From positions 1 to 64,000 of the IMG/VR virus record IMGVR_UViG_3300011008_000041: DNA of 64,000 nucleotides; one strand, 5' to 3'. Positions 5,867-36,500 of the stretch are shown one piece after another. A program made the translations under genes and the position numbers. The notes beneath the pieces are model-generated. The model did not search any database. It was given only the letters and a program-made list of their open reading frames with translations, and was not told the DNA's origin. This DNA is from a virus. Lineage: Duplodnaviria; Caudoviricetes. How positions within the stretch are numbered: the stretch's first letter is position 1; the number at the start of each line of letters is the position of its first letter.

Positions 5867-6735
5867 TTGTCTTCCTCGTCAAACAGTTCATGGAGTTCCC
5901 TCAAATCGTCCATAGCATCGTGATCCTTTTGTGTGGAGCAGGTCGCCTGCTGACTTTGCCTGTCGTCGTAGTTGCCCTCGAGTACTTTGGGAAAATTGTT
6001 CGGTTTGACAAACCACTCAAACGTAATCATCCATCCGTCCCGGTTTTGCCCTTTTAGGAAGGAGCTATTTCTGATTTTTTCAATGGCGGACAGAACTGTA
6101 TCGACCCCGTATTCGTTCACGCGAGCCCTCAGCATACTGCCGCGCTTCGATTCACTCGTGACCTTGACCAGCTGTTGTAACCCGAGCGAATTCCATGCCT
6201 GTACAATGCGTCGGACATCCTTTGTCCGACAAACAAACCCGTCAGGGTTTGTAGAAACATCTTTCTCTTTCTCTGTATCTGTATCTATCTCTAACTCTTT
6301 ATCTATCTCTATATCTTGGGGACAACCGGGGGACAATCGGGGGACATTGTCCCCCGTATCGTCCAAACTGCGCTGTTCCCGTTTTCGCTTCGCCGCATAC
6401 GTCTCGCTGTCCAGAAGCTTTGCAACTTCGGACATGAACAGCGTCTTATCGTCGAAGACCTCAACCATGCCGAGTTCTTCAAAGAGCTTTAGCGCTGTGC
6501 GAACAACATCAACATTCGTCTTTGTCACGCTGGCCAGCATTTGCTCGTTGTATGGGATGGTATCGGAGAAACGAAGGGCACCTTCATGGTCAATGCTTTC
6601 GAGCATGAGCTTGAGATAGAACAGGACATAATCCTTGCCGTTTGGCATATCCTCGATCACGGTAATATCGTGGCGTTTGAAAAAATCCCGATGGAGCTTT
6701 AGCCAGTAATACCGTTCCTTATCGCGTGATGCCAT
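5863..6735 (-). CDS. phage replisome organiser/replication initiator
   Basis: RYYWLKLHRDFF..NGKDYVLFYLKLMLES N-terminal domain; ITFEWFVKPNNFPKVLEGNY C-terminal motif. Confidence 0.9.
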   Translation of the reverse strand: MASRDKERYYWLKLHRDFFKRHDITVIEDMPNGKDYVLFYLKLMLESIDHEGALRFSDTIPYNEQMLASVTKTNVDVVRTALKLFEELGMVEVFDDKTLFMSEVAKLLDSETYAAKRKREQRSLDDTGDNVPRLSPGCPQDIEIDKELEIDTDTEKEKDVSTNPDGFVCRTKDVRRIVQAWNSLGLQQLVKVTSESKRGSMLRARVNEYGVDTVLSAIEKIRNSSFLKGQNRDGWMITFEWFVKPNNFPKVLEGNYDDRQSQQATCSTQKDHDAMDDLRELHELFDEEDK

Positions 6736-6748
6736 AGCCTACCTCCGA

Positions 6749-7198
6749 TCAGAACGGCAGATCCTCGTCTTCGCCTTCGTCGGGCAATTCGGTAAACTGA
6801 CTGCCGCTGGGCTGCTGATACTGTCCGGTCGGGGGAGGTGCCGAAGATGTTGACCGCGGAGCGGTATCACCGTCTTTCTTACTGTCGCCAAAGTACATAC
6901 TGTCAACGACAACCTCGGCCGACCGCCGCTTGTTACCGTCGCGGTCCGTCCAGTCGCGCAGCTGCAACCTGCCGGACGCTACCGCCATGCGGCCTTTGGC
7001 GAAGTACTTCGCGGCGAACTCTGCCGTGGAGCGCCACGCCACGCAGTCGATGAAGTCCGTGGCTCGCTCGCCGGTGGACTTGTCGGCAAAGTCTCGGTCA
7101 ACCGCCAGGGTGAAAGAGGCCACCGGCGTCTGACTCTGCGTGTACCGCAATTCAGGATCGCGGGTCAGGCGTCCCATGATGACGATATGGTTAAGCAT
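6749..7198 (-). CDS. ssb: single-stranded DNA-binding protein
   Basis: MLNHIVIMGRLTRDPELRYTQ OB-fold; acidic DEDLPF tail. Confidence 0.97.
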   Translation of the reverse strand: MLNHIVIMGRLTRDPELRYTQSQTPVASFTLAVDRDFADKSTGERATDFIDCVAWRSTAEFAAKYFAKGRMAVASGRLQLRDWTDRDGNKRRSAEVVVDSMYFGDSKKDGDTAPRSTSSAPPPTGQYQQPSGSQFTELPDEGEDEDLPF

Positions 7199-7424
7199 CG
7201 GGCTCCCCCTTTGCTTCATCCTTGGTGAAGTCCATATCGCTGGGCCGATGTGCATCGTCTTCCAACTTGCGGATCAGTTCGATCAGCCCGCGATCAACAC
7301 GGTCGTAGTCGGTGTTGCTTGCCAGGATCAGCGTCAGCCGCGCCTCTGCGGTGATCAGCTCGTCGTACCTTTCCAGGGGGATGGTAACGGTATCATCAGC
7401 GATGATTACGATAGATTTTTCCAT
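7191..7424 (-). CDS. hypothetical protein
   Basis: RBS (gaaaggag) before MEKSIV; coupled. Confidence 0.65.
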   Translation of the reverse strand: MEKSIVIIADDTVTIPLERYDELITAEARLTLILASNTDYDRVDRGLIELIRKLEDDAHRPSDMDFTKDEAKGEPDA

Positions 7425-7791
7425 GAGTTTTTCTCCTTTCGCGTTGGCAGATATCAATGACCTGCTTGCATTGGTCCACATCGAACATGCCGATGTGCGT
7501 TTTCTCTTGCGGTAAGCCCATCTGTTCAGAGAGCCACCTGTACGCAGCGTTTCGCTGGTGCTTGAACTGTCCGACCTTCCAGAAAGGGTCAAAGAATGCG
7601 TGAGCCGTGCGTTTCCAGTGCCGGAGTTCGGCGTTTGCAAGCCGCCCAAGGGGGACGTCGGTTCCTTTATGAACGCCCACATAGGCGTCGCAGCGCTCAC
7701 ACAAATAGATCATTCCATAGCTGCGTCCATACACAGTTTTGCTGTCCACATATTTCGCAGGGAGACCACAATAGTCACATAGAACCTTCAT
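7396..7791 (-). CDS. DUF3268-like zinc-finger protein
   Basis: CDYCG..YLCERCDAYVGVHKGT..LGRLANAELR..AHAFFDPFW. Confidence 0.8.
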   Translation of the reverse strand: MKVLCDYCGLPAKYVDSKTVYGRSYGMIYLCERCDAYVGVHKGTDVPLGRLANAELRHWKRTAHAFFDPFWKVGQFKHQRNAAYRWLSEQMGLPQEKTHIGMFDVDQCKQVIDICQRERRKTHGKIYRNHR

Positions 7792-8293
7792 GCGAAGCCC
7801 TCCTTTGTGTTGCCCTGGTGTTCCGGTTTTGTTCCGCTCTGGTAGCCCATCTGCAATTTTGAGGACAATAGCCCATATCATTGTCGATTCGATCAATAGT
7901 CAAATCTTCCGAATATCCGCTTGATAGAGCCCAGTCCTTAAAGGTTGCAAAATCATTCATCCACTCGTTGCATACGGTTATCCCTCGTGCGCCGTAATTC
8001 TTCCAGTCCCGAGTATTCGGATCCGTACACCGCGTTTTCATAGCGCACCAGATGCGGTACAGACGGGTATTTCGTCCTCCGTGTTTGGTTGATCTTGCCG
8101 ACAGCAGTTCTCGTTGTAGACATCCACAACTCTTGGTTGTGCCATCCAGCAGACGCTTCCCGTTAATGACTACTTCTCGCCCACATGAGCATCGACATTG
8201 CCAAAGGACATCCCTGCTGGTAGATCTACGGCCAGAATCAGAGATCACGAGTAACCTTCCAAATCTCTGGTTAATAAGGTCATTTTTCATCAT
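7775..8293 (-). CDS. HNH-type (homing-like) endonuclease
   Basis: FGRLLV..WQCRCSCG..TKSCGC; LTIDRIDNDMGYCPQNCRWAT. Confidence 0.8.
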   Translation of the reverse strand: MMKNDLINQRFGRLLVISDSGRRSTSRDVLWQCRCSCGREVVINGKRLLDGTTKSCGCLQRELLSARSTKHGGRNTRLYRIWCAMKTRCTDPNTRDWKNYGARGITVCNEWMNDFATFKDWALSSGYSEDLTIDRIDNDMGYCPQNCRWATRAEQNRNTRATQRRASHEGSM

Positions 8294-8808
8294 CGACCCT
8301 CCATCATGGAGGCGAGTTCCTCCGGGGAAAGCGTCTCGATGCCGAGCTCTTTGCAATCCTGCACAATGGCGTCTATCAGCCGTGACATCCGCTTGGTGGA
8401 GTAAGTGCTGGAGCCGTAATAGGCACGGATCACAACATGATCTCCATCCGGGGCATAATCGACCTGCTCAGTCGGCCAGCCTGTACCGAGTTCATGCCAT
8501 GCGTACTGGAATGTGCGGGCCTCGTCTGCGGTCAGGGTGAAATCCTTGAACTGACCAAACTTCCGTATGTACTCGATATACAGGTCGTTTTTGTCGCGGC
8601 CCAGAGCCGCCGCCAGCTTGTCCAACAGGACCCACATATAAGAATTGGCCTCGCGGCTTCTCTTGTCGCGCCACTTCTTGAAAGAGGCGTCAACATCACC
8701 GCTGTACAGAGCGTCGTATTTCTCCCGGAAGTCCTCGTCGAGCTCCACGGTCACGCGCCACTTTCCGTTTCTGCCGCGGACCATTTCACCGACAAAACGC
8801 CCTCTCAT
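8290..8808 (-). CDS. NinB/Orf-like recombination protein
   Basis: RSREANSYMWVLLDKLA..GSSTYSTKRMSRLIDAIVQDCKELGIET. Confidence 0.75.
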   Translation of the reverse strand: MRGRFVGEMVRGRNGKWRVTVELDEDFREKYDALYSGDVDASFKKWRDKRSREANSYMWVLLDKLAAALGRDKNDLYIEYIRKFGQFKDFTLTADEARTFQYAWHELGTGWPTEQVDYAPDGDHVVIRAYYGSSTYSTKRMSRLIDAIVQDCKELGIETLSPEELASMMEGR

Positions 8809-9569
8809 GAACCAAACGCTCCCTGAAACACTTCCTCGGACATCCGCCGGGCTTCGCAATCCATAATCTTCTTGAATGCGGTATCAACGTCAGCCTCATC
8901 CTCAACCGCTGGCTTCTGCGGGAGCGATTTGAGTGTATCGGACTTTGGTCTGTCAGCCTCCCACTTCTCTTTGTAGAGATCGAGCAAGCCCATACTCTGT
9001 AAGGACTGAACGAAATCGCTGATAAAGTCGGCAATGTCCCGGGTCTCCTGCGGTATGTACCGCTCGGTGTACAGATCCTCGCCGTCGCTGACGAGATAGA
9101 TAAACTCGTGTGCTTCGGGAATGAGATAGAAGTATGTCGGATGCTGCGGGCTGTTCAGATAGTCGCCGGCAAGATCAAGGTCTTTGAAACTCTTGGCCTT
9201 ATACTTCACATCGAAGATTGTGCCGGCCTTGAGTCCATCCAGAATTCCGTAGACAAGGAACGTCATACCGGCAACCCTGATCTCTCGTGACGCCCGGACT
9301 TGCACCTGAGCGCCTTTCAGGTACGTTGCAACGCTCTCCACGCCGTTTTTCCACTTGCCGGGATATTCCCGCTTGCCCGTTCCGGCCAAAGCGTACACAG
9401 CGTTTTCAAATGCGATGCCGTCCCGCATGGCTTGGTTGGGCTCCTCGTGTTCTCTGTTGAGGGTTTTGAGGAAAGAGGCTTTCGCCTCTTCCTCGCCGCC
9501 CTCATAGCAGTCGAACATGTATGCCCACGAGCCGAGGAGAGATTGCGTTACGAGATAACGCGCCATCAT
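8805..9569 (-). CDS. PD-(D/E)xK-like exonuclease (recombination)
   Basis: YGILDGLKAGTIFDVKYK and QHPTY motifs; adjacent to Sak4-like ATPase. Confidence 0.65.
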   Translation of the reverse strand: MMARYLVTQSLLGSWAYMFDCYEGGEEEAKASFLKTLNREHEEPNQAMRDGIAFENAVYALAGTGKREYPGKWKNGVESVATYLKGAQVQVRASREIRVAGMTFLVYGILDGLKAGTIFDVKYKAKSFKDLDLAGDYLNSPQHPTYFYLIPEAHEFIYLVSDGEDLYTERYIPQETRDIADFISDFVQSLQSMGLLDLYKEKWEADRPKSDTLKSLPQKPAVEDEADVDTAFKKIMDCEARRMSEEVFQGAFGS

Positions 9570-10510
9570 GTAACCTCCGCGTTGATGTAGCAGCCCGCCT
9601 CCTTGCTCCACTTGAAGCCGAGGGAGGCAACCTTTTTCTTGAGCATTTCCGACGCCTCTTTCTTTGAGGTCAGCGCGTGGTCCAGTTCAGGCAGCGCTTT
9701 CGCGGCAGCGTCGGCGCTTTCGAGATCGTGGATGTTCTCAACGATCTCGGTGACCTCGACCATGACGTGCTCGTACTGTTCGCGGAGGGGGGCAAACGCC
9801 TCGTTCTCTGCGGCGATATTCGCCTTGGCCTCATCAAACAGGCGGGTCAGAAAGTCGTTCTTATCATTCGGGCCAATGGCCGGGATGGGCCGTCTGCCGA
9901 CAATGCCGTGACAGCCTTTTGCAAAGAACTCCTGTTCGGGGGTGAAGCAGATAACGCGCTGATCACCGATCATCTGAACGTAGCCACCGAAGTCACAGGG
10001 CGTCCATACGGTATTGCGGACGCTGCCCTCACAGACAAGGCGCTGGATGGGATTGCCGTCTTTGTCTGCGCCCTCATTGGAATGGAACACATAGATGATG
10101 TTCTTGTTGAGGCGGGTCTTCACATCCTCGGTAAAGCGGTTCCATTCCGACTTGACGAAACCGAAGCCTTTGAGCCCGTTGAACTCGCCGCTCTTGGTCT
10201 TCGCTCCTTTCTCGGTCATGGCCCAGTCTTTGAGGAACGTCACAAAGCTGCCGCCCGTGTCGATCACCACCGTCTGGTAGTCCCGCATATCGGGCGAGTT
10301 GATGTCCTGCAGAACTTCCAGATAGGTGTTGCAGAACGCGGTATCCTTGCGGTGGGCGGCAGACACGCGGGAAATGCCGCGGTCGAAGTCCAGCAGGATC
10401 GGATCAGGGGCAGACAGTGCCAGCGTGGTCTTGCCGACGCCGGGCGAGCCGTAGATGATCATGGAGAACTTCTTATCGGAAAAGTTCATATTCTCAGGCT
10501 TTACGATCAT
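9566..10510 (-). CDS. Sak4-like/AAA_24 ATPase (phage recombinase)
   Basis: Walker A GSPGVGKTT, LLDFDRG, Walker B TVVIDT. Confidence 0.85.
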   Translation of the reverse strand: MIVKPENMNFSDKKFSMIIYGSPGVGKTTLALSAPDPILLDFDRGISRVSAAHRKDTAFCNTYLEVLQDINSPDMRDYQTVVIDTGGSFVTFLKDWAMTEKGAKTKSGEFNGLKGFGFVKSEWNRFTEDVKTRLNKNIIYVFHSNEGADKDGNPIQRLVCEGSVRNTVWTPCDFGGYVQMIGDQRVICFTPEQEFFAKGCHGIVGRRPIPAIGPNDKNDFLTRLFDEAKANIAAENEAFAPLREQYEHVMVEVTEIVENIHDLESADAAAKALPELDHALTSKKEASEMLKKKVASLGFKWSKEAGCYINAEVT

Positions 10511-11000: not shown

Positions 11001-13043
11001 TTAAAAGAGGATTTTCATAATTCGTTCTGTGGCTCCTTTGACCTTAACCACCAGCGTATTCCGCTTGGTGGAGCTGAAGCCAAGTCCGGAGAGCTGGTCG
11101 GGCACGGTCTGAACAGCCATCTTGCCGCCGAGCGCCTCGAATACCCGCTTGTGTTCAGCAAGCTCCTGTTTCAGAAACTCGTTATAAAAGCCGTTGGGCT
11201 GTTCGGGGTTGACGCAGTCTTTGAGCATGAAGAAGTAGTGGCGATGGCCGATGCCTGTCTGAGCGTCCCAGTAATTGGGGGAATACATTGCTACAGTCAC
11301 GGGGACAAAGTTGTTGGTTTTCACGCCCCACAGATCAACCGATGCTGTATCGGCGGGAAGTTTGGTAACGATAGTGAACGTTCCATCCGGTTTCAGCTGG
11401 ACAGCGGCAACATCGACGTTTTCGCCCTGGCGGAGTTCTTTGCGGTAGTCGAACCGGAAGATTTGTCCATCGAATTCGATTTCTGCCCGAAAACCATCAC
11501 GCCCACCGCGATTGGCATACTGGTGTACGAAGAAGTTGTAAACACCGGGATACATGCGGCGCTTATCGGGCCAGGTGATGTTTTCTACCGCAGGAACTCC
11601 ATCAATTGGGTGGGTAATGTCCACGTCGAGGTTGCCTCCGTCAGAAACCCGCTTATGACCGAAGAAGATATGCTCATCCATCGGCGTTATACAATGCGCA
11701 TCGAGGTCGTTCCGGCTGTATTCGCCTGTATCATTCCACTGAATGGAAAAGCGCAGAACGCCATCCACCCGGCCACCGGCCGATTTGACATTTTCCTTCA
11801 CGTCGCTATCGGTGATGTTTCCGGAATAGGCCCAGGAAAACGAGTTGTTCCACTTGAACATGCTAGGCGCGTCGGCGTTCACCGGGGCGATAAGGGACAC
11901 CATGTTGGGAGCATGGCGGTTCTCCACATACACCTCCATTTCGGTCACGCAAGGGAGCACATCGGCAATGAACTTATTCACCGGGATTTCCTCGGCGCGG
12001 TCGAACCGCTTAGGTGTGGTTTTCGCCTCAGAGAGCATTTCGTCGAACACGGAGCCGCCAATTCTCTTGGAAGCGTCGCGATTGGAAAACAGGATGTTGT
12101 TCACGGTGATATCATCCAGGGTTGCGAAGCGCCGAGGCAGAGAATCCATATAGCCCAGATCGGTGATTTTCTGCTTAGCCTCCTCCAGCATCCTCGCGGT
12201 AAAGATAGCTTTAGGCCGCTTGTAGTTTGCCGGGGCAACGATCTTCTCGTAGCGTGTCACCGCGGCATTCAGATCCATACCCGAGGACACATCCGTCAGC
12301 AGGACGCCGATAGAATGATTGCGGATGCGCCCGATCACAGAACCAACATTGGGCGCCTCTTTCCACGCAAAGAGCGATTTCTTCTCTTCGGACAGCATGT
12401 CATAGACCTCTTTGCGGGATTTGAACGCCGCAAGAGGCTTTTTCCACTCCTCGCCCTTGTAGAGCGTATTGGATACGATCAGTTCCAGGATGGTGTCGAG
12501 GGCGACCATGCTGATTTCGTCCAGCGAGCGCTTGAATACGTTGCGAGTGTCCCGGCGCTGGCCACGCGCGGTATCGATAGTGTCTCGCGTAGTGTTCGTG
12601 AGATAGCCCGGAAGAAGCAGGTGGAAATGATCCCATGCCCTAATCTTTCCGTTGTCGTTCTCGTGAGAAACGTCAGTGCCTATATAGCGTTCTCTTGCGA
12701 TGTAGTAGCCCGTGATGTTGCATCCAGTCACATAGGCCGCAAGCGCATCCATGACAGGCTGGTAGGTGGTGCTCCCGGTGTCGAATTCAAAGATGCTGTG
12801 CATCGTCAGATCGTCATCGATGTACACAACGCCGCCAATTTCCTTGATGAAGTGGCGGCAGCAGGAACAGTCGTGTTCCCGGCGCTCCCGGAAGATTTCG
12901 TTTGTACCGGCAGGGAAACTGTCAAGGTACAGGTTCCAAAGGGCATCTTTATCGACATCCGTTTCAAACAACAGTCGTTCGGGATCCTCGACGGACCGTT
13001 TGAAATTTGCCAAGAGCTTGAGTTTCATTTCTTTGAAGCTCAT
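11001..13043 (-). CDS. 680-aa conserved phage protein with HDCSCC motif and YfaP/DUF2135-like domain
   Basis: HDCSCCRHFI; VLRFSIQW..NDLDAHC..GNLDVDI..AVENITW. Confidence 0.8.
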   Translation of the reverse strand: MSFKEMKLKLLANFKRSVEDPERLLFETDVDKDALWNLYLDSFPAGTNEIFRERREHDCSCCRHFIKEIGGVVYIDDDLTMHSIFEFDTGSTTYQPVMDALAAYVTGCNITGYYIARERYIGTDVSHENDNGKIRAWDHFHLLLPGYLTNTTRDTIDTARGQRRDTRNVFKRSLDEISMVALDTILELIVSNTLYKGEEWKKPLAAFKSRKEVYDMLSEEKKSLFAWKEAPNVGSVIGRIRNHSIGVLLTDVSSGMDLNAAVTRYEKIVAPANYKRPKAIFTARMLEEAKQKITDLGYMDSLPRRFATLDDITVNNILFSNRDASKRIGGSVFDEMLSEAKTTPKRFDRAEEIPVNKFIADVLPCVTEMEVYVENRHAPNMVSLIAPVNADAPSMFKWNNSFSWAYSGNITDSDVKENVKSAGGRVDGVLRFSIQWNDTGEYSRNDLDAHCITPMDEHIFFGHKRVSDGGNLDVDITHPIDGVPAVENITWPDKRRMYPGVYNFFVHQYANRGGRDGFRAEIEFDGQIFRFDYRKELRQGENVDVAAVQLKPDGTFTIVTKLPADTASVDLWGVKTNNFVPVTVAMYSPNYWDAQTGIGHRHYFFMLKDCVNPEQPNGFYNEFLKQELAEHKRVFEALGGKMAVQTVPDQLSGLGFSSTKRNTLVVKVKGATERIMKILF

Positions 13044-13064
13044 AAGGCGCTGTTCTCCTTTCTA

Positions 13065-13634
13065 TTAATCATAGGTTTCGCGGGCTTCCATCTGCTTTAC
13101 ACCGCCCTCCCAGCAATCGCGGCAGTATACACCGGCGAAGTACCGGCCCGCGATCTCGGCGGTGCTGATGATCTTCCCGCATTTTGAGCAGGGGATATAA
13201 CCCTCGCAAAACTGCTTGGTTTGCTCCTCGATCCACTCGATGAAGTCGTCAGTTGGCGGTTGGCTCATGCTACGGATCGTAAACTCACCGATATGTCGGT
13301 CGAAGTCATCCCACAAGGAAAACAGGCCAGCATCTAGCCGTATTCCTTTGTGCGTGTTGTGGTAAACGGAGAACTTGAACCGCTTGTTTTCTCGGATAAG
13401 GTAGAACTCGTGGTTGCCAAGGTTCATTTGCATGAGCTCGTTCCGCAGGGCGTGAACCTTGTCCAGCATTTCAACGCCCTCATCCCATGTCACCCCGCAG
13501 CGCTGCATTTCCCGAAACACATTCCTGGGATAGATCTGTTTCGTTACGGTGTTGAACCAGGGGTAAACAGGCAAGCCGACAAAGAGTTCCTGCCAGATAC
13601 TCTCGATCAGATTGGCTTGTTTAGTCCGCTCCAT
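13065..13634 (-). CDS. hypothetical protein with C-terminal Zn finger
   Basis: CSKC..CRDC; RBS before MERTK. Confidence 0.65.
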   Translation of the reverse strand: MERTKQANLIESIWQELFVGLPVYPWFNTVTKQIYPRNVFREMQRCGVTWDEGVEMLDKVHALRNELMQMNLGNHEFYLIRENKRFKFSVYHNTHKGIRLDAGLFSLWDDFDRHIGEFTIRSMSQPPTDDFIEWIEEQTKQFCEGYIPCSKCGKIISTAEIAGRYFAGVYCRDCWEGGVKQMEARETYD

Positions 13635-14193
13635 ACTTCGCCTCCATCTTCTCGATGAATGCATCGACCTGAGCGGTGACCCAGTCCTGGACGGTCTCAT
13701 AGCCCTCGGCCTCGATGTACCTCTGTAACCGCAGGAACTTGTCATCCGGGAGTCGCCCCGCAACACGGGCTGTATACCTATGTCTGCCGCTCCGGTGCTT
13801 TTTCGTCGGCGTGGAAGCGGTCTCATGAGGCGGCGCGGGTTCATCTTCAATGCGGGTCACTCCCGATCCTCCGCAGGGCGGGAGGGGTGGCGCCGGCTCT
13901 TCGGCTGGCACGTTGGCAATGTTGTCCCGAAGAATGGCAAAACCGCCAGGATGAAGTACACAGCCGTACAGGTTCGGCCGGGTGCATTTCGATACGACGG
14001 TTTTATCCAACTTCGGATAGTGTGATCGCAGAAGCCTCGTCGCGTCCTTGGGCGTCAGAGAAGCCGCGTTGATCGCGCCTCTCAGGTCATACCGTTTGAC
14101 AGCGGCATCGAACTCTGCTAAGATGTCTGTGGGTTTACTAGCCTTGGGGTCGTTGTGTGCCAGCACAGCGGCCTCGTTTTCTTTTGTGATCAT
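13621..14193 (-). CDS. hypothetical (possible DNA-binding) protein
   Basis: Coupled ORF; C-terminal RHH-like segment. Confidence 0.6.
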   Translation of the reverse strand: MITKENEAAVLAHNDPKASKPTDILAEFDAAVKRYDLRGAINAASLTPKDATRLLRSHYPKLDKTVVSKCTRPNLYGCVLHPGGFAILRDNIANVPAEEPAPPLPPCGGSGVTRIEDEPAPPHETASTPTKKHRSGRHRYTARVAGRLPDDKFLRLQRYIEAEGYETVQDWVTAQVDAFIEKMEAKYGAD

Positions 14194-14639
14194 GCGATAT
14201 TCTCCTGACTGATGTTGTCCATAGCCTCGAACACCGCGGCCAGCTCCGAGAGCGCCCGGTATTTCGCCTTGAATGCCTCAAGCTCTTCCAGCGCGTTCGT
14301 CAGAAGTGCCTTGCGCAGTTCCTCGTTGCTCATGGCCGCATAAAGGGTCGTGTAGCCCTTTTCCGCATGAACGAACTGTCGGACCGGCGTATCGTCCGCG
14401 GCCTCCTGGACAGTAATGTTTCGGATGATGTACTGTGCCTGCACAGTGCGAAATCGCTCCGCAGCGACACGATCATCCCACTCGAACAGAGCGTGAAGCG
14501 GAGCGTCCTCCGCACGGCTGGCATCAACCACCGCCTGCGGTGTCAGTGTCCCGTCCTTGCTCTGGTCCCTGATGCGGTTCAGCTCGGCGACCGCCGTTTG
14601 AACCGGTACCTTCATCGGGATCTTCCATTGATAGGTCAT
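14190..14639 (-). CDS. conserved protein immediately downstream of the GGY-NN array (putative accessory factor)
   Basis: Strong RBS (agaaaggagg); LTPQAVVDASRAEDAPLHALFEWDDRVAAERFRTVQAQYIIRNI motif. Confidence 0.8.
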   Translation of the reverse strand: MTYQWKIPMKVPVQTAVAELNRIRDQSKDGTLTPQAVVDASRAEDAPLHALFEWDDRVAAERFRTVQAQYIIRNITVQEAADDTPVRQFVHAEKGYTTLYAAMSNEELRKALLTNALEELEAFKAKYRALSELAAVFEAMDNISQENIA

Positions 14640-14678
14640 TGGGGTTTCCTCCTTTCTTTCAGATTTGCTCTTCACGGC

Positions 14679-15819
14679 GCGCCTAAACTAGCCGTGCCTC
14701 GGCGACCCAAACCACGCCTGCCCATCCGCTCCGGACCGCACCACAACGCATCATTCCAAACCACGCCTGCCAAACCGAACCCTTCCGATCCCATCCGCAC
14801 CGGACCTAACCTTGCCTGCCATACCACGTCCACCCTCGGCTCTACCGACCTCGCCATCCATGCCTGCCAGCCTTGCCATTCCGTACCGCGCCGAACCTTG
14901 CGTCAACGCGCCATGCCGAGCCGCGCCTGCCATAACGTTCCCTTCCGGGCCCAACTCTGCCTTGACAAGCCATGCCAGCCAGTCCACACCTGAGCATGCC
15001 GTTTCCCACCGGAACTGACCTCGCCTTGCCCGCCATGCCTCACAGATCCAAAGCGAACACTACCGAAGCCAACCATGCCCGCCGCGCGTAGCCACCTCGT
15101 ACCGTAACTAGCCTCAGCAAACCGGGCCTGCCATGCCCAGCCATGTCCCGCCTTGACGTTCCGAACCTGAACGGACCATGACTGCCAAACCGCCCGTGCC
15201 GTACCGGGCGCAGCCTACCCGGACCATGCCAGCCGTACCGTACCAAAGCCCACCACAACAAGCCGTGCCATGTCACACCGGAACTGCCTTGCCTGGACGT
15301 GCCTGACCTCGCGTCGACTTTCCACGCCTAGCCTAGCCTGGCAAACCGTACCGAAGCTCATCCAACCGGAACCAACCGAGCCCCGCCTAAACCCGCCTGT
15401 CATATATGTACCGAGCCCAGCCCCGCAAAGCCGTTCCACAACTGGCCCTTCCTTGCCTGCCGCACCGAGCCTTTCCAGACCGTGCCTAGCCCCAGCGAAG
15501 CATGCCCCGCCTGCCGCACCGAGCCGAACCTTGCCAAACCCCGCAAGACCCAGCCTAAACAGAGCGAACCGTGCCTTGCCTGCCTTGCCGGACCTAGCCG
15601 GGACAAACCGGGACTTGACACACCTAGCCTGCCGGGCCATTCCACGCTCTGCCACGACGCACCGCTCAGGACCACGCCATTACGTGACTTGCCTTGCCTG
15701 CCAGTCCATGCCATAACGAGACGCGCCAAGCCCCGCCATCCTTACCCTGACCGCCGTACCGAACCAATCCAGAACGGGCCCAGCCAAACCGGAACATGAC
15801 TTACCCAGCCGTGCCTGTC
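14679..15819 (-). ncRNA. array of about 21 putative guide RNAs built from GGY-NN pentamers (VIPR-like)
   Basis: Strict 5-nt periodicity (plus strand NN+RCC-like triplet), broken every 8-13 pentamers by a 4-nt unit (tgcc/agcc/cgcc; GGCAGGC on minus). Starts 7 nt after the RAMP stop; no credible ORF. Confidence 0.85.
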
Positions 15820-15825
15820 GCGGAA

Positions 15826-16494
15826 TTACTCGATATGAAACATTCCTGACTGCCCGGATTTCTCGACACGCCACTCACCGATGCCGCAGACCATCCCGGC
15901 AGCGTTGATCATGTTCACGATATTCTCCAGGGAATACTGGCCGTTCTTGTTGTATTTCAGGATCACGTCTGTGCTCCAATTGCGGAACTCGCCGCGGTAA
16001 CGGAGATCGGCGGTGCCAAGGCCGACTTTGACCATATCCTCGCGCATGATCGGGGGGTCGCTAATGATCTCCAGCATGTCGAGGCCGCTATCCCCGAGTT
16101 GGCCGACGCCGTACAGGAAGAACGCACCCTGCAGGGAGACCTTGTCCTTCGACCACCCCATACGATAGGCGGCGCTTATCGCAGCCTTTTTGAGTCCGAC
16201 CACAGGGAAACCAAACCGGGCACCCTTGGCGATGGCCTCCTCAAACGCCTCCTCGGTCATTTCCGTGGGCTTCTCGGTGAGCCAGTACATGGAGTTGATG
16301 AAATCCTCGACGGGGTTCTTTACGGGCTTCTTCTTGCCCTTCGCGAGGCCCATCTGCGCCTCCAGCATCTGCCGCTTGGCCTTCTCGCTCCAGCAGTGGA
16401 CGATCAGGGGCGTGTCACCGACGATATGAAGGGTGACCTGGGCCATGTCCAGAGGGCGAACTTCAACGATCTCATCATTCTTCTTGGTTGCCAT
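15826..16494 (-). CDS. stand-alone Cas7/RAMP-like protein (Vipr-like), 222 aa
   Basis: RBS+ATG at 16494; VTLHIVGDTPLIVH strand, FGFPVVGLKKAAISAA helix (cf. IPGSSLKG), C-terminal Gly loop GMVCGIGEWRVEKSGQSGMF. No other cas genes in the window. Confidence 0.8.
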   Translation of the reverse strand: MATKKNDEIVEVRPLDMAQVTLHIVGDTPLIVHCWSEKAKRQMLEAQMGLAKGKKKPVKNPVEDFINSMYWLTEKPTEMTEEAFEEAIAKGARFGFPVVGLKKAAISAAYRMGWSKDKVSLQGAFFLYGVGQLGDSGLDMLEIISDPPIMREDMVKVGLGTADLRYRGEFRNWSTDVILKYNKNGQYSLENIVNMINAAGMVCGIGEWRVEKSGQSGMFHIE

Positions 16495-16523: not shown

Positions 16524-16552
16524 GACGGCGCAACAAAATATTTTTGGTGTTT

Positions 16553-16591
16553 GCCGCTTCGGATGTTCCAGCATCCGGGGCGGCGCTTTTT
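16553..16591 (+). terminator. GC hairpin plus T-run
   Basis: gccgcttcggatg-ttccag-catccggggcggc-gcttttt. Confidence 0.55.
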
Positions 16592-28989: not shown

Positions 28990-30060
28990 CTATGCGGCTT
29001 TCGGCATGGCCATACTGTGTTCCCTCACAACATCTTTCAGCACCTTCGCACTTATTGGGTCGAAATACTTCACCCGGATATTGTAAGAGTTGCAATGCTT
29101 GAGCTGCCCCGCACGGGATAGGAGCCCTGACGCAGAGTGGAAGGGTATCTTCCTGCCCTCGTCGATCATGCGCTGTACGCGCCGGCACTGCTGGGCATAG
29201 CGAAGGAAGTTCCTGCGGCGGAGTGTTGTATGGGAATGGTAGAACCGGAATCCGACAAAATCAATGCCGCGGGCATCGACCGGGAACACCTGCCAGTTTT
29301 CTTTCAGGCGCAGGCCGAGGCCAGAGAGGAACGCGGCTATGGACTTCCTGGCCTTGTGGAGCAGCTTTTTGTTCGGCCCCATCAAAACCATATCGTCCAT
29401 GTTCCGAGTGTAGTATTTCACCCCTGGGAGCGTGCAGATATGACGATCCAGCGGTTCCAGATAGAAGTTCGCCAGCCATTGGTTGATATAGAAGCCAATG
29501 GCGAGCCCGCCGTCTGAATTGGAGGTCATGATATCGTACACGGTTTTCAGGAATAGCTTATCCTTGATCTTCCGGGCCAGCGCCCAGATCAGACGCCGTG
29601 GCGAGATTGAAGGATAGAAGTGCTTGATGTCCATCTTCAAGCAGTATTTTGTGCCCTTATGGTCATTCCGCAGGGCACGGCGTACATAGTTCATGGCGCA
29701 TTTGTTCCCGCGTCCGGGGATGGATGCGCAGGACCAGCGGTACATACCACGCATGAGGATGTCTTCCATGGCCATTACGCAAAGTTGGTGCATAAGACCG
29801 TCAGGATAAAACGGTACGATCTGTATCGTTCTCTCCTTCATGCAAGTACGATCAAATATCACCTTTGATCGAGGCGTGGTTGGGATATAGGAGCGTGTCA
29901 TCAGCATTTCATAGGCTTGATCGACATAGCTTTCCTCGTCGGCCAGCACGATCTTTACATCCCAGCGATTACGCTTTCCTCGTGTCCCTTCGCGGATAGC
30001 GGCGCGGATCATGTCCTTGTCACACATCCGCTCATAGATGTGGCCCACTCTATGGGGCAT
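28990..30060 (-). CDS. DGR reverse transcriptase (356 aa)
   Basis: RBS aggagg before ATG 30060; CLKMDIKHFYPSI, GLAIGFYINQWLAN, YYTRNMDD, GIDFVGF. Confidence 0.95.
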   Translation of the reverse strand: MPHRVGHIYERMCDKDMIRAAIREGTRGKRNRWDVKIVLADEESYVDQAYEMLMTRSYIPTTPRSKVIFDRTCMKERTIQIVPFYPDGLMHQLCVMAMEDILMRGMYRWSCASIPGRGNKCAMNYVRRALRNDHKGTKYCLKMDIKHFYPSISPRRLIWALARKIKDKLFLKTVYDIMTSNSDGGLAIGFYINQWLANFYLEPLDRHICTLPGVKYYTRNMDDMVLMGPNKKLLHKARKSIAAFLSGLGLRLKENWQVFPVDARGIDFVGFRFYHSHTTLRRRNFLRYAQQCRRVQRMIDEGRKIPFHSASGLLSRAGQLKHCNSYNIRVKYFDPISAKVLKDVVREHSMAMPKAA

Positions 30061-30180
30061 AGGGCATTCCTCCTTGTTTGCCTCAAGGCCGTTCGAGAGT
30101 GAACCTACTAAGCCCTGTCCTGACGGCAAGATTTTTACCGAGCGGTATGGACTTATCTGCGCACGTGTGCGTGAGAAAAC

Positions 30181-30317
30181 AAGGTGTCGGGAGCCGAGGT
30201 TCGCGTTGGTGTTCGAGGCCGCGTTGTTGGCGTTGAAGTAGAAGAAGCCATAGTTATCGTTGCTGTTATAGTTGCCGCCAACGTTCAGCGCTTGGTCGCC
30301 GGTGTTCGAGTTGACGT
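30181..30317 (-). repeat. DGR template repeat (TR), 137 bp
   Basis: Aligns without gaps to 30574-30710; AAC-rich; 15 of 16 mismatches are at TR adenines. Confidence 0.95.
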
Positions 30318-30533
30318 GAACACCCAGCAGAACGGGCTCGCATGGCGCAAATAATCCCGCAGGGGATGATAGCACACATTCTGCTGGTACGCTTGAAAAT
30401 GGAAAAGGTTTACACACAGGTGTCGGTGTATTACGCCAAGCGTAATTTTTGAATTTTATAAAACGTGGGGCTCCGCCCCACACCCCGGTTAAGGGGTGCA
30501 TACGAGGACGGAGCCACAGCGTTTTAACGAACC

Positions 30534-30555
30534 TCCGGGGGTTGCGACCCCCGGA
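30534..30555 (-). other. DGR target-recognition hairpin downstream of VR/IMH
   Basis: 9-bp stem tccgggggt-(4 nt)-acccccgga a few nt after the target stop. Confidence 0.8.
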
Positions 30556-30561
30556 CCCCCG

Positions 30562-33500
30562 TTAGGGGATATAAAGGAGTCGGGAGCCGAGGAACGCGCT
30601 GGTGTACGAGGCCGCGTAGTAGGCGCTGAAGAAGAAGAAGCCAAAGTTATCGTCGCTGAGATAGACGCCGCCAACGTTCAGCGCTTGGTCGCCGGTCTTC
30701 GAGTTGACGTAGTCTGGGACATACGTACTCGCAGAGCCTCCCGACGCTGCATCAGGAATGAAGGCGTACGGGCACTCTTCGCTGTAACCAAAGCCAGTAA
30801 TATACTGTGAAGACGGGAGTGTAATACCCGTCTCAACGAGTGCACTCTTGTTATCGGCAAACGAGGCATTGTCCAGACTGGTGTATACCGCTCTGCTGGA
30901 TGCCATAAAGCCATCCACCCAGTCACGCACGTTACTGAACGGATCCTCGACCCATCGGTACTGGTTATGTGCGCCATTGAGTTTCAGCGTGTGATACGCC
31001 GCGCCGGTCGTGCCGCCGCAGTTGCTGATCGAACCCGTATTCCAGCCCGTTCCAAGAGTATTCTGGCTATGGAAGTTGGCAAACTCGACCAAGTAGAGCA
31101 TCTGCAGAGCCGACCACGAGGCAATGTCCAGCATGTACCAATTCGTACCCTTGTTATGGGAGTAGGTGCGGAAGTTGGTACGGGTGGTGTTCACCAACAG
31201 TGCCGCACCGGATTTGGAATAGACCGCCGAGGAATCACCGGAAGTATGGAAGCGGCCAATATACCGCCCGGAGCCGGGATGCTTCACAAAGCCGGTCTTT
31301 GCAGTCGGCGAGATTGCCCACATCCACTTGCTGTTTGCGGTGTCCTTATAGGCGGTGTAGTAGAACTCCGGGATGTAGACCACGGTATCGTAGTCCGTTT
31401 CCGAGAAGCCTGCGTCATCTTCGGAATAGGAGATTGCACCGTCGATGACGTTGTACCGCTTCATGCCGCTCCACGGCAGGATGTTGTCAAACGGAGAGGA
31501 GCCGGATCCAGCAAGGGACGTGGCCGGCGAAGGATCGGAGAACGAGGCCGCAAGGCCGAGCCTTGTGAGGGCGGGGCTGGAATTGGCGTAGTTCCATTCG
31601 ACGCCGTATGCGCCGTCTGCGCTGGTGGCGGTGGGAACCTCCACATTGCTTGCCGCCTTGAACTGCGCGTAGCAGGATGTATTGGCGGTGATGTTGGTGT
31701 TGCTGGGGTTCCAACCGATGAACGTGCCACCGTTGGGGTCAACAGGGGTCTCTCCGGTATAGTTTGCGGTGCCTCCCGAAGTGACGCCCGTAACGGTCTG
31801 CAAAAGGGTCGTGCCATTGTAGAAATAGACCGTGTACGTCACGATGTACGACGCTGTGTAGGTGGCGTTGCCAGTAACTGTGGTGACTGTCGGTGTCCAC
31901 CCCTGGAACGAACCGCCGCCCGACACCGGATTCTGAGGCGTGGAGCCGTTATAGGTGGGCGTCGCACCATACGGGACGTTGGTATCGGTCTCAAGCGTGG
32001 TGCCGTCGCTGTTCTTCCAAGTAATCGTGTACGTCCGCACCGTCCAGGAATAGGCCGCGTAAACGGTACGATCCTCCAGGACGTTGGTCGTGCACCCGCT
32101 TTCCGCTGTCTGCTGGTCCTGCTGAGTGTTCCAGCCAACAAACGAATAAGAGTACTGCGCAGTCGAACTTCTGGTGGGGGCGGTCGGCGCGCTCTCCTGC
32201 GGGACGCCATCAATGCAGGTGACAGTCTTCAGCGTCGAGCTGCCGTCATAGGTCTTGTAGGTCAGGTAACTTGTGGTGTGATCAGCCGTCACGGACAGAT
32301 AGGGATAAGCCTCAAGTCTGGTGTTGATCGCGGCGAGTTCGGCTCCTGTGAGGGAGCTGGTATGAATGGTGCCGGACACCTGGGCCGTGTCCATGTTGTT
32401 GCCATATTCATCCAAGCCGCGCATTACATCGAGCTTGTCGAGCAGGGCGTTGATCTCCGTAGCACCCGCCGCTTCCCACGCAAGCCCAATCAGACGCACA
32501 CGGGAAGCCGCAGGGATCGCGTTCAGGATTGCCTTGCTGTTAACCGCCGAGCTGACGTTCTCCAGCCACAAAGTAGAGATATTGGAGTAAGACGGGATGG
32601 TAAAATCCGCAATCGCCGTCTGATTGCGGATGGTCAGGTTGGTGATCGTAGAAGGAAGATGCAGCACTTTCAGAATGCCGCCGTTCGGAAGATCAATACC
32701 GGTGATGACCGTGCCGTCGAAGTACACGTTCTCGATGTTGGCGCAACCCGAGATATCCACCGACTTCATATCGCCAGTGCCAAGGCCGGCGCAGTTACGC
32801 ACATCCAGCGTGCGGAGCAGGGTGTTATTGCCAAGGTACAGCTCTTTGAGGTTGCCGTTGGAGTAGGATCCGGAACTATCGCCGAGCTTGATGCTCTGCA
32901 ACTTTGTGGCCATGCTGAAATCAGCAAAGCCGACTTTCAAACCAGAGAGGTCACCCACGGCCGCAAGCTGAGACGCAGAGTAGATGTAGATTTCGGTATC
33001 GTTCACGTTATCCAGCGGGCAGATAAGCGTGTATGCCTGATTGCGCGTGGCGCGGGTCTGCACGAGGTAAGAGCCGTACTTCACCGAGGCGTACACGTCA
33101 GCATACGGGGTAACGGTGATGTTCGACTTCGCGTAGCCGCGGAGCTGGATCACGTCGCTCTGTGCGTCGCCGGCGTTGTACTTCGAGTCGATGTAGCGGA
33201 AGCGGTTGTAGAGCCACCATTTGCGCTGTTCGGCCTTCGAGCCCTGCAGCATGGCGAGATACGCGCCGGAGCCGTCCTCGACCAAAGGTGCAAGGTATTT
33301 GAACCAGGCGTCTTCATTGAAGACTGCCTCGCCCCATTTCTCCTGGTGTTCCTCAAACGCGGTCTCGACCCTCGCATACGACAGCGCCCCGCTCGAGCGA
33401 AGCGTCTGATACATAGCCTTGATCTCGTCATAGAAGGCCTGACGCATGTTGATCCAGAGGACAGACTGCTGACCATTGAAGACATCTGCGCCGCCCGTGA

Positions 33501-36500
33501 TGGTGTCGATATCCTCCAGGTTGTAGGAGAAAACGAGAGCGCCCTCGTTGTTGATACCAAGGGCGGTATCGAAGTCGTAGGGGAGCCAGCACCATTTATC
33601 GCCGCTGAGCTGGGACGGGAAAGCGTTCTTTGCGCGGCTGTCGACCATCAGGAAGAGCTCGGTGAACAGGTAGTAGAAAATCGTACTGTCCATCTCCATA
33701 TGATCTGCGGCCTCGGCCTTAAACTTCGCCAGCCGGTACGCCGCTGTATCATTGGTGTAGGTAACGGCATCATCGCCGGTTCCGTAGGTAACAGCGCTCG
33801 GCAAGGCGTTGCCGGTCGCCGCGCTCTGATCGGTGGATTTCAGCCACGTTGCTAGTGCAGAGAGCTTTGTTGCGTCGGTATAGGCCGGGTCGGTATCAGG
33901 GTAGCGAGCCTCGAAGTCATTGAGCCATCCATCCCCCGTGTAATCATCACTCTTCCAGAGTACGCGATCGCTGGTGTTGTTCTTGATCTCCCACGACTCG
34001 TCGCCGGAAATAAATCCGAACACTTCTTCGGTGCCCTTATCATTATTGAAGTTGTATTTGCCGAGGAACGTTGTGGTTTCGCCGTTGCTCCAGAAGATGA
34101 CGCACGGGAAGCCGTCGATGCCTTGCCTGACGGCACTGTTCTGCTCCTGTGGCGGCGTCTTGTACGGACAGGCGTCGTTGTAGAGGATCGCCAGCTCGAC
34201 GTTGTTAGCGCCCTCAGAGCTTGCCACGTCAGCTTTCATACAAAAAGCGTTGGTAGCAATAGCGCCCGGGCGCAGGGAGTATGCGCTTGCCAGAGTGCCG
34301 CTGTTCAGCAGGAAGCCGCCCTTGAATTTCAACTTATAGTTCTTCCGGGCGTAGTACTGCGAGGACGTACCTTGGACATCAGCCTGGACATTCGTGGCCG
34401 TGAAGCTCTTGGAGGGAGTGACCGGGTCAACATAGGTAACAGCTACCGTCCGTTTATCGCCCTTGTACTGCGGGAGCTCGTCGCACTCGATTATCATGTA
34501 AGGAAGATCGCTGGGAAGCTGTGCGATCACCACATTCCCATAGGCATCGTAGATGCTGTTGCGGTTATACCGCGCAATCATGTCATCCACGTTCTGGCTG
34601 TCGGCAATCCAGTTTTCAAGCACCTGATAGCGAGTCAGGTCGTTGTCATAGATGCGAATGCGGTACACGTCGATGGTGCAGTCATTGGAGCCGATGGAAA
34701 TGCCGACCGGGGTGGTCTGTGCGAAGTCATCCGAGGCCGGATACTGAACCACGCCGCTCATGATGCCGTTCACATAGATATACAGCAGGCGGTTTTCGCT
34801 GCGCTTCTCAGCCACGAAAGCCAGCCGGACGTGCTCGTTCTCCTTATACTGCATGCTGATCTCCGACTGCTCGGAGGTCAGCGTCGCTTTCTGTGCCGTC
34901 ATGGACAGGCCACGACCACCGGAGAGACAGGACAGGATCACGGCATCGTAATTCATGACGTCCCGCGTGGCAAATTCGACCTCGATGGTCTTGCCGGTTC
35001 CGCGGAAGTCGGAGCCGAAGATCTGATAGGGAATCGTGACGCGGGCGTCGCCCGCCACACGCAGGACGGTAACGCCGTCCTCGTCAAGCAGCCAGCCGTC
35101 CGAGGAGAAGTTGAAGCCCGTCATGGTGGCAGCAATGTTGTTGTCGCCGTCCGTCCATGTGCCGGGATTTGCCTCGTTGTTACTGCGTCCCACACTGGAC
35201 AGATGAAGCACAAGGTTCTGGGTTTCAGCTTCTACGTTGATATCGCTCTCGGTGATCGTTACCGTGATGGTCTTCCGCGCGGTTCCGGATGCAATAACAA
35301 CCGTCAGGCTCCCCGCCGTGTCTGCGCGATATGCGAACACCTGTTCCGTGCGGTCTACCGTCTGCTGGGAGACCTGAGAACCGTTCACAGAGATCGTTGC
35401 AACCGCCGTCAAGGACGTTGGATCATACACGGTATATCCGATGTTCAGCGTACTGTACTGGATTGCTGTGCTCTTGTTGAACGAGGATACGATGATCGGA
35501 GTATTGTTCAGCGCTTCAAGGCAGATGATCTCGTAATACAGGTGGTTGGACTCAACCGACTCACCGTTGATTACGCAGTCGAAATAGCACTCAAGGGTGT
35601 GCGCTCCGTGGGACTGCTGCGGGATCGTGTAGGTCATCTGTCTGCCGGATACCGAGGTTGACGCGGTTCCGATCTCCCTGCCGTCCAGCAGGAAGCGCAC
35701 TGTCTTCTGCACCTCGCCAACCGGCGTGTACGGGAAGCTGATCGCGCCCTGATACGGCGTGGAGGCGTCAAAGGTCGAGCTGATCGAAACAGCGACCACC
35801 GTAACGGAGAAGTTGATGGTCCGGCTGTTGTCGTATACGTCGCTGATTGTGACCTTGATCACGTTGGCGCCGGAGGAACAGTATGCAGCAAGGTCGATGT
35901 TGACCGTGCCCTGCTGGATGTTCAGCATGGCCTTGACCGCGCCGTTTACGGTGATCTTCGCCGTTCCGTCACCCGTGGGCATACCGTCCTCCTCGGAGGA
36001 CCAGACAACCGTGATGGGAGCTGTGCCATCCTCGGCAATGGTCTTCGAGAGCCAGCCGGTGTTGTTGGTGACGCTGAGGGACGCGGTATTCCCGGATGAC
36101 CCGCCGCCACCACCGCCAGAGCCCGAGAAGGGGCCAAGAGGACCGGCCACGACTTCGCCATTCGACGTCAGATAGAGGTAACCGTTATCGACATAGGCAT
36201 CATCGACCTTGCCCTCGATCACCAGCTGCATAGCCGCGTCGCTGCGCCGAAGGGCGGCAACAGCGTTATTCAGTTCGGCAACCTCGTTCTCCGCGTTGTT
36301 TGCCGCGGACAACGCCTGTGCTGCCTTGGTATTTGCGTCAGTCGTGATGTTGGCGATTGCCTGCGCCTTCTCATCGATCTGCTCAATGGCATCGTCAATC
36401 TTCTGATCGAGAGACGTTTCTTTTCTCTCGATATAGACAATGGCGGCATTCTTTGCCGCTACAGCATCGTCCGCAGAGCCCTCCGCGTTTGATGCAGCTG

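Follow-up and report, generated by a model that had tools for sequence, protein, structure and literature searches.

What does a temperate phage do with a stand-alone Cas7-like protein that has a long, G-rich, non-coding tract beside it and no nuclease? The question is raised by a locus in the uncultured virus IMGVR_UViG_3300011008_000041 (Duplodnaviria; Caudoviricetes), analysed in a window of 64,000 nucleotides (nt), the whole stretch of DNA studied here, which belongs to a complete phage record of 72,096 bp. Three parts follow one another on the minus strand: vipr, which encodes a 222-aa protein, an array of GGYNN pentamers, and vap, which encodes a 149-aa protein (Table 1). The locus is very probably a phage-borne VIPR (Viral Interference Programmable Repeat) system that works as proposed below. 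VIPR systems were described in three 2026 bioRxiv preprints from one group (10.64898/2026.04.26.720920, 10.64898/2026.04.26.720927, 10.64898/2026.10.15.759431) as a stand-alone RAMP, Vipr, with vrRNAs of 9–16 YNNGG repeats, in which the NN dinucleotides recognise double-stranded DNA (dsDNA), one target base, usually a wobble base, is skipped, and the result is transcriptional silencing; seven VIPR types and six vap families are distinguished in these preprints. This kind of system is already published, and the locus is a new, unusually guide-rich member of it with a staggered array.

The Vipr protein and the staggered array

The 222-aa open reading frame (ORF) holds the motifs GDTPL, FPVVGLKKA and GIGEWR...GQSG, all at the minus-strand positions where an earlier note, made from the DNA letters and their translations, had placed them. 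The product belongs to phrog_4652, a PHROGs family of unknown function, and neither it nor the vap product has a Pfam match; the Vipr family has 2596 representatives at E ≤ 1e-3 after clustering at 50%. A phmmer search of the sequences in the Protein Data Bank (PDB) gave one significant match, 36pp_D, "SUSP1 Vipr protein" (E 2.9e-5). The same protein was matched by a profile of 68 homologues at E 3.2e-14, and hhalign against the Vipr of phage SUSP2 gave a probability of 98.6%. The earlier note had named VIPR as the matching system, and this homology, together with the existence of the preprints, bears the match out. The alignment with SUSP1 Vipr covers only the C-terminal ~70 residues, which form the thumb and the G-loop. 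Within it, R138, C173, D177, W178 and R179 of SUSP1, which hold the two guanines and the pyrimidine (10.64898/2026.04.26.720927), correspond to R167, C203, E207, W208 and R209 of the present protein, and R167 and R209 are invariant among the 68 homologues.

The RAMP/Cas7-like fold that had been suspected from the motifs is recovered by structure prediction. The AlphaFold (AF2) model has a pLDDT of 95 and comprises an RRM core, a thumb hairpin at about residues 149–170 with R165 and R167, and a G-loop, CGIGEWR, at residues 203–209. Foldseek returned 48 PDB matches at E ≤ 1e-3, with Csm3 and type VII/III-E Cas7 at the top (E ~1e-5), and VIA gave Z scores of 10.9, 10.7 and 10.7 to Csm3 and Cmr subunits over 141–149 residues, 31 of its top 32 rows being CRISPR RAMP entries (Csm/Cmr/Cas7/Cas6/Cas5-type). 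On homology and modelled fold, the 222-aa protein is assigned as Vipr, a minimal stand-alone single-RRM RAMP.

The array that follows had been noted as 1.14 kb of non-coding GGY-NN sequence beginning 7 nt after the vipr stop codon; its extent and period stand, with 1136 nt counted, and the distance was corrected to 10 nt. G makes up 43% of its bases, and the lag-5 autocorrelation of G is 0.457 as against 0.00 ± 0.03 in 2000 shuffles (z 15.3), with a maximum of 0.109 elsewhere in the window; a fast Fourier transform peaks at a period of 4.87–4.97 with ~39 times the mean power. In 209 pentamers, the first position is G in 94%, the second G in 78% (T in 14%) and the third a pyrimidine in 85%, while the fourth and fifth are near uniform. 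A five-phase Viterbi parse divides the tract into ~22 segments, of which the 18–20 with at least 7–8 pentamers were counted as guides, giving about 20 guides of 8–14 pentamers each. Every guide boundary is a 4-nt GGC-A-GGC junction with a phase slip of −1. Besides this junction no sequence is kept between guides, and neither a tail nor a ribozyme lies between them; Rfam (E ≤ 1) has no family in the array, hammerhead included, and the array end has no significant fold. Tandem Repeats Finder reports three short fragments only, since NN varies from unit to unit and the phase is shifted every ~50 nt. ORFs of 109–148 aa overlap the array on both strands, and the array as coding DNA was rejected, a 5-nt period being incompatible with coding. 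In one 116-nt segment (window 15343–15458, minus strand), two units that do not fit the repeat (ATATA TGACA) break the series. The segment represents either two guides that a damaged junction has joined or an internal element, and a target was found for neither half.

The same arrangement recurs in other phages. A search of IMG/VR and GTDB genomes with the single Vipr protein gave 37 related loci (Vipr identity 34–68%) from viral contigs and metagenome-assembled genomes (MAGs) of Clostridia, Eubacteriales, Acutalibacteraceae, Lachnospiraceae and Oscillibacter. By a scan of GGY..GG density, 31 of the 37 loci have an array that follows vipr immediately and on its strand, and none has one on the opposite strand; two arrays lie just upstream of vipr (L031, L033), and there are no others elsewhere in the ~10-kb flanks. 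A vap homologue follows in 34 loci, and the remaining three are cut by contig ends, so that the 149-aa gene was rightly called conserved and the three-part locus sought in other phages is present there. Other neighbouring genes are not conserved across the 37 loci. The grammar of the array is shared as well: in 25 related arrays, the phase shifts by −1 at 130 of 137 guide boundaries, the junction logo reads G.91 G.77 C.73 A.69 G.93 G.61 C.54 (the junction base being A in 69% of 132), and unit lengths of 44, 49, 54, 59 and 64 nt (5k−1) predominate. Staggered arrays are described in a figure legend (fig. S18, 10.64898/2026.04.26.720920) as having a 1-nt overlap between adjacent vrRNAs. In the present array, the last pentamer of a guide, GGCAG, has a G in common with the first GGC of its successor, and the −1 slip is therefore equivalent to this overlap, as far as the legend describes it.

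The present array is large and the family is variable in this respect. The spacer between vipr and vap is 1186 nt here versus 85–825 nt in the relatives, and with ~20 guides in 1.14 kb the array is the longest of 26 compared. Three loci with near-identical vipr genes, L012, L010 and L011, carry 1, 5 and 8 guides, respectively, with the first and last units in common, which therefore points to rapid, cassette-like gain and loss of guides. As a separate observation, a 5-bp mini-hairpin stands after the last GGCA junction, just before the ribosome-binding site of vap, in L001, L002, L005, L009, L010–L012, L015 (at L015:6046–6059) and L037. Its stem shows compensatory changes (GGCUU-GGA-AAGCC, GGCAU-GGAA-AUGCC, GGUAU-GGAU-AUACC), its folding energies by themselves do not reach significance, and the window has no evident counterpart; it may cap the last guide in those relatives.

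The vap product carries the motif APLHxxFEWDDxxAAExYRxxQA and belongs to phrog_15946, also a PHROGs family of unknown function. Its AF2 model has a pLDDT of 94.5. Residues 100–149 form a C-terminal helical hairpin, the best VIA match (Z 6.4) covers this hairpin only, and Foldseek found nothing at E ≤ 1e-3.

Targets of the guides

The guides were decoded in silico by reading the NN pairs as NNx, with one base skipped, and scanning both strands; exact-match scans of this kind are insensitive to targets with 1–3 mismatches. At the sequence level, five guides (0, 2, 3, 8 and 16) have clear targets, with best matches at 92–100% of their NN bases, and a sixth (13) probably has one. For the five, readings with no skipped base or two, shuffled guides and reversed guides found none. 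The target sites lie in codon register with the skipped base at the wobble position. A gapped NN code had been proposed beforehand, and it is the one-base skip that yields targets where contiguous, two-base-skip and shuffled readings do not.

Guide 16 provides the strongest numbers. In IMG/VR, its 20-base NNx pattern is matched exactly at least 112 times, against ~0.2 expected by our own estimate; among the matches listed, all are in codon register in ~650-aa ORFs, three of three ORFs scanned are PF00476, and the best match is 24/24 over 12 NN. Guide 8 (10 NN) has no match in an exact scan of IMG/VR. In the loci of the polymerase-bearing phages, it has 24 matches at ≥17/20 (maximum 19/20) with a one-base skip, where readings at skip 0 or 2 and shuffled guides give no match, and all these sites are at the N-terminus of PF10991 ORFs, 1.7–2.5 kb from the polymerase site. 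For guide 13, eight of ten matches at ≥15/18 share one position in the polymerase; the shuffled controls are noisy and the matches mutually homologous, and a second polymerase site is probable. A guide 13-like site is also seen in each of two family-A polymerase genes (6333..8378 and 31283..33310) of L161–L162, an IMG/VR contig (G005) with inverted terminal repeats.

Guide 3 has 16 exact 18/18 matches in IMG/VR, 14 of them in register at the site given in Table 1, at residue ~110–124 of ~370-aa PF13479 proteins. Guide 2 has seven matches with at most 3 mismatches in 26 bases, in 6 of 301 genomes of a Clostridia order (best 25/26), all in codon register in ORFs with PF00176 and PF00271; the reversed control found none in the 301 genomes. 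Guide 0, in antisense, decodes to the end of vipr itself: it matches the vipr of L022 at 23/24 and those of seven other relatives at 20/24, where the chance maximum is 15–16/24. The match to the phage's own vipr is poorer, and two of its five mismatches arise from a serine encoded by TCC where the guide expects AGY. No self-target at ≥80% of NN exists in the phage's own 72-kb genome, the guide 0 site being the best at 19/24 (79%); a perfect self-match is found at skip 3 only and is the array itself. The phage genome contains no polymerase A, Enc34 SSB (single-stranded DNA-binding protein) or SNF2 gene, and its own AAA_24 homologue (9566..10510) is distant and diverged at the guide 3 site.

The code is not peculiar to this array. 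Across the clade, 29 of 135 guides match a 1.86-Mb competitor set at ≥90% of NN, as against 0 of 135 shuffled guides, and the one-base skip, the wobble logic and the targeting of vipr genes are reproduced here, by sequence matching, on independent data. Guides aligned with the wobble base and aimed at catalytic cores and at rival vipr genes have been reported (10.64898/2026.10.15.759431), and the anti-competitor role first suggested for the locus fits guides that match replication genes and vipr of rival phages. In this phage, each of the six assigned guides runs antisense to the coding strand of its target. A general rule that all guides are antisense was rejected because sense guides occur in relatives; the uniform orientation here could reflect an mRNA origin of the guides or an additional action of theirs on mRNA.

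The remaining guides gave weaker or no results. No exact match was found for guide 4 in IMG/VR, nor any in 251 genomes at up to 3 mismatches, for guide 14 in IMG/VR or 5 MAGs, or for guide 5 in metagenomes. Two exact 18-base matches of guide 20 were rejected, as they lack common flanking homology and fit the chance expectation of ~3, and those that guides 1, 12 and 14 have in the AAA_24 loci appear fortuitous. Guide 15 has seven matches at ≥15/18 with similar peptides, versus 0–1 in controls, in ORFs that have no Pfam family and at inconsistent positions.

Table 1. Features of the VIPR locus and sites assigned to its guides (window coordinates)
Feature	Position	Strand	Description
vipr	15826..16494	-	222-aa ORF, stop TAA
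Staggered vrRNA array	14680..15815	-	1136 nt, end at ~14680; first GGC at 15815, 10 nt past the vipr TAA
vap	14190..14639	-	149-aa ORF, ATG 14639, strong ribosome-binding site directly after the array
Guide 0	15753..15815	-	antisense decode V-E-K-S-G-Q-N-G-M-F-H-V, last 12 sense codons of vipr genes
Own vipr C-terminal self site of guide 0	15833..15867	-	VEKSGQSGMFHI; 19/24 match
Guide 2	15631..15699	-	SNF2-family helicase gene at GLGITLTAA[GS]TMVF[YF]S (Helicase_C region)
Guide 3	15582..15630	-	AAA_24 (Sak4-like) ATPase gene at FGYGKGFTY
Guide 8	15232..15285	-	5' end of Enc34-type ssDNA-binding protein gene (xxNPTKVITG)
Guide 13	15032..15080	-	probable: LSD[NT]ELKQI in family-A polymerase gene, 246 nt from motif A
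Guide 16	14867..14928	-	motif A (IVADFSAIEA; IVADFSAIEARV) of family-A DNA polymerase genes
GC-rich 15-bp hairpin	16552..16585	.	between upstream 81-aa ORF and vipr (consensus scan)

Proposed mechanism and alternative readings

The vipr gene, the array and vap are probably co-transcribed as one unit of an early operon, because gaps of only 10 nt and ~40 nt separate the parts. By homology with SUSP1 Vipr, one protomer would bind each GGYNN pentamer of the transcript, the thumb arginine and the E-W-R of the G-loop would sequester GGY and leave NN exposed, and the protomers would polymerise into a helical filament. The GGC-A-GGC junction would break the pentamer register every ~50 nt, and this break would delimit ~20 guides without tails or ribozymes. 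The filament would then recognise dsDNA with NN pairs one base apart, the skipped base coinciding with the codon wobble. The guides would be aimed at invariant coding motifs in the replication genes of rivals (polymerase, SSB, AAA_24, SNF2) and, in one case, at a rival vipr, the phage itself lacking the targeted genes or being diverged at the sites. No nuclease is present, and binding would probably block transcription of the rival replication module. Vap, possibly a winged-helix DNA binder, may enhance silencing as Vap1 does in SUSP1, and the phage may gain an advantage in co-infected, co-induced or poly-lysogenic cells. The published systems are reported to place one protomer on each repeat, to sequester GGY, to skip one base and to silence without cleaving (10.64898/2026.04.26.720920, 10.64898/2026.04.26.720927), and the cryo-EM and reporter work in these preprints agrees with what the earlier note had proposed for the grip on GGY, the presentation of NN and silencing without a nuclease.

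Several points weigh against this reading. Transcription, processing, ribonucleoprotein formation and DNA binding at this locus are predictions from its DNA. The N-terminal two thirds of the protein have no sequence alignment to SUSP1 Vipr, and the SUSP1 contacts H17 and K33 fall there. Vap residues 1–104 resemble winged-helix/forkhead proteins weakly (VIA Z 5.5–5.7), and Vap has no similarity to the Vap1 of SUSP2; a role as a DNA-binding helper is plausible by analogy with the preprint description of vap genes. RNA sequencing in the discovery paper confirmed only the ribozyme and single-guide variants, not staggered arrays (10.64898/2026.04.26.720920). An exact 24/24 target of guide 0 (12 NN) is absent from the IMG/VR and metagenome scans, about a dozen guides are without a target in the collections searched, and T stands at the second position of 14% of pentamers, some units being degenerate, so that some guides may have decayed. 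The last points could be carried further, to an array of VIPR descent that is orphaned, with most guides non-functional and its length that of drifting repeat DNA; the interrupted segment (15458..15343) would also suit such decay. Drift of this kind would erode the matches, whereas five guides have best matches at 92–100% of NN, GGY is kept at 94/78/85% while NN is free, and both genes, vipr and vap, are intact and conserved. Active vrRNAs, too, are reported to contain degenerate units (methods, 10.64898/2026.04.26.720920), and exact-match scans overlook real targets with 1–3 mismatches. We regard general decay of the array as highly improbable.

The other readings concern what the complex would act on. 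That a VIPR-type ribonucleoprotein acts mainly on the mRNAs of rival replication genes, not on dsDNA, is quite improbable, though the closest structural relatives (Csm3, Cmr4, Cas7-11) are RNA-targeting RAMPs and six antisense guides of six have a two-sided probability of ~0.03 if orientation is random. Six guides are a small sample, related arrays match the same gene families in sense as well (e.g., ANVWEPKSI in the SSB gene), and the published system binds dsDNA, forms an R-loop triplex and silences from either strand (10.64898/2026.04.26.720920, 10.64898/2026.04.26.720927). Regulation of the phage itself or of its host, with the array tuning its own vipr through guide 0 or tuning host genes, might be supposed from the partial match of guide 0 to the own vipr 3' end, only 18 nt from the guide, and from a report of satellites that steer Vipr towards host decoy sites (10.64898/2026.10.15.759431). 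Guide 0 nevertheless fits a foreign vipr allele better than its own, the switch of serine codon family in the own gene looks like avoidance, no other guide reaches 80% of NN in the 72-kb genome, and the identified targets are genes that the phage lacks; this reading, too, has only a very slight probability. G-rich periodic DNA can have other roles, and the tract might in principle be structural or regulatory DNA (iterons, an origin or a G-quadruplex tract) next to an unrelated RNA-binding protein. Its placement immediately behind vipr and on the same strand in 31 of 37 loci, NN pairs that specify conserved phage codons only at one-base spacing, and the homology of the protein to one solved in complex with such RNA leave this next to no probability, and the target matches effectively refute it.

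With the VIPR reading thus preferred, a more specific joint proposal may be considered. In it, the junction would force a break in the filament, and the 5-nt ruler of Vipr itself would set the guide ends without a dedicated nuclease, tail or ribozyme; the guides would form a broad-spectrum anti-replication arsenal against Firmicutes phage families, each directed at an invariant catalytic or structural motif common to whole families; and the own vipr would be shielded by the serine codon-family switch. That all of this holds together is a speculative proposal, and in our view a rather doubtful one.

Genomic setting and comparison with known systems

The complete genome has direct terminal repeats and encodes a terminase, portal, major head protein, tape measure, 2141-aa tail protein and endolysin, as well as a serine integrase of the large type and a cI-like and a cro-like gene in divergent orientation. 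The phage is classed as a Clostridia phage, and as temperate because the cro-like and cI-like genes and the integrase are present. Within the early operon on the cro side, the VIPR locus forms the third unit; it lies just downstream of the cro-like gene and upstream of genes for a 680-aa protein and for Sak4-like, DnaD-like, methyltransferase and ParB-like proteins. The hairpin ahead of vipr (Table 1) is a possible terminator or operon boundary, and a promoter consensus scan found no minus-strand promoter for vipr. The surroundings are those of a viral genome with no CRISPR array: Cas1 was not found in the 72-kb genome and no other cas gene was seen, and the window holds no CRISPR-like interspaced repeats, as the earlier note had stated.

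Two other features of the genome were recorded. The 680-aa protein, just downstream of the VIPR locus (window 11001–13043, minus strand), is of unknown function (phrog_1735, E 1.9e-261); a nearly full-length antisense ORF (11151..13187) runs across its gene, which is not kept beside vipr in the relatives. A diversity-generating retroelement lies on the minus strand (window 28990–30710 and 30562–36987). Its 137-nt template repeat (30181..30317) adjoins the reverse transcriptase ORF (28990..30501, phrog_1423), and its variable repeat (30574..30710) lies at the C-terminal end of the 2141-aa tail protein (30562–36987); 15 of the 16 differences between the two repeats are at template adenines.

The nearest known form is the staggered-array VIPR, which has in common with the locus a stand-alone Vipr RAMP with vap and guides of GGY/NN pentamers (9–16 repeats in the published form). 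As far as the legend of fig. S18 goes, the two also share the one-nt guide overlap, the lack of tails or ribozymes between guides and carriage by phages; the junction base A and the 5k−1 unit lengths are measurements of the present analysis. The experimentally characterised systems are type II systems of Escherichia phages SUSP1/SUSP2 and of a Pseudomonas fulva prophage. Vipr of SUSP1/SUSP2 is alike in its C-terminal half, including the thumb arginine and the G-loop, and the characterised systems share the one-base-skip code, wobble-aligned coding targets, anti-vipr guides and the lack of a nuclease. They differ in layout and in aim. SUSP2 has the order vrRNA–vipr–vap1–vrRNAs, whereas the array stands between vipr and vap here, and type II systems have a conserved structured 3' tail (a pseudoknot) on each vrRNA and vap1, neither of which occurs at this locus. 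The host lineage here is a Gram-positive anaerobe, unlike those of the characterised systems, and the targets are replication genes of other phages instead of a satellite recombinase or lysogeny regulators. The backbone proteins of class 1 CRISPR systems (Csm3, Cmr4, Cas7) have the same RRM core, thumb and glycine-rich loop (Z 8–11) and, according to the literature, likewise polymerise along a guide with periodic base flipping. Their period is 6 nt with one base flipped, as against 5 nt with three bases sequestered here, their sequence identity is only 9–14%, and the CRISPR array and cas gene set that accompany them are lacking here.

VIPR has been characterised in phages of Enterobacteria and Pseudomonas, and the locus adds a clean example from uncultured gut or anaerobe Clostridia phages, with the staggered architecture that was not experimentally verified in the discovery paper. 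Its readable guides give concrete targets, namely polymerase motif A, SSB, AAA_24 and SNF2 of a widespread prophage replication module and a rival vipr, and the concept of VIPR is extended by them, not changed. The ~20 guides offer natural material for work on guide turnover and on the cutting of arrays that have no tails, and they indicate which phage families compete in these communities.

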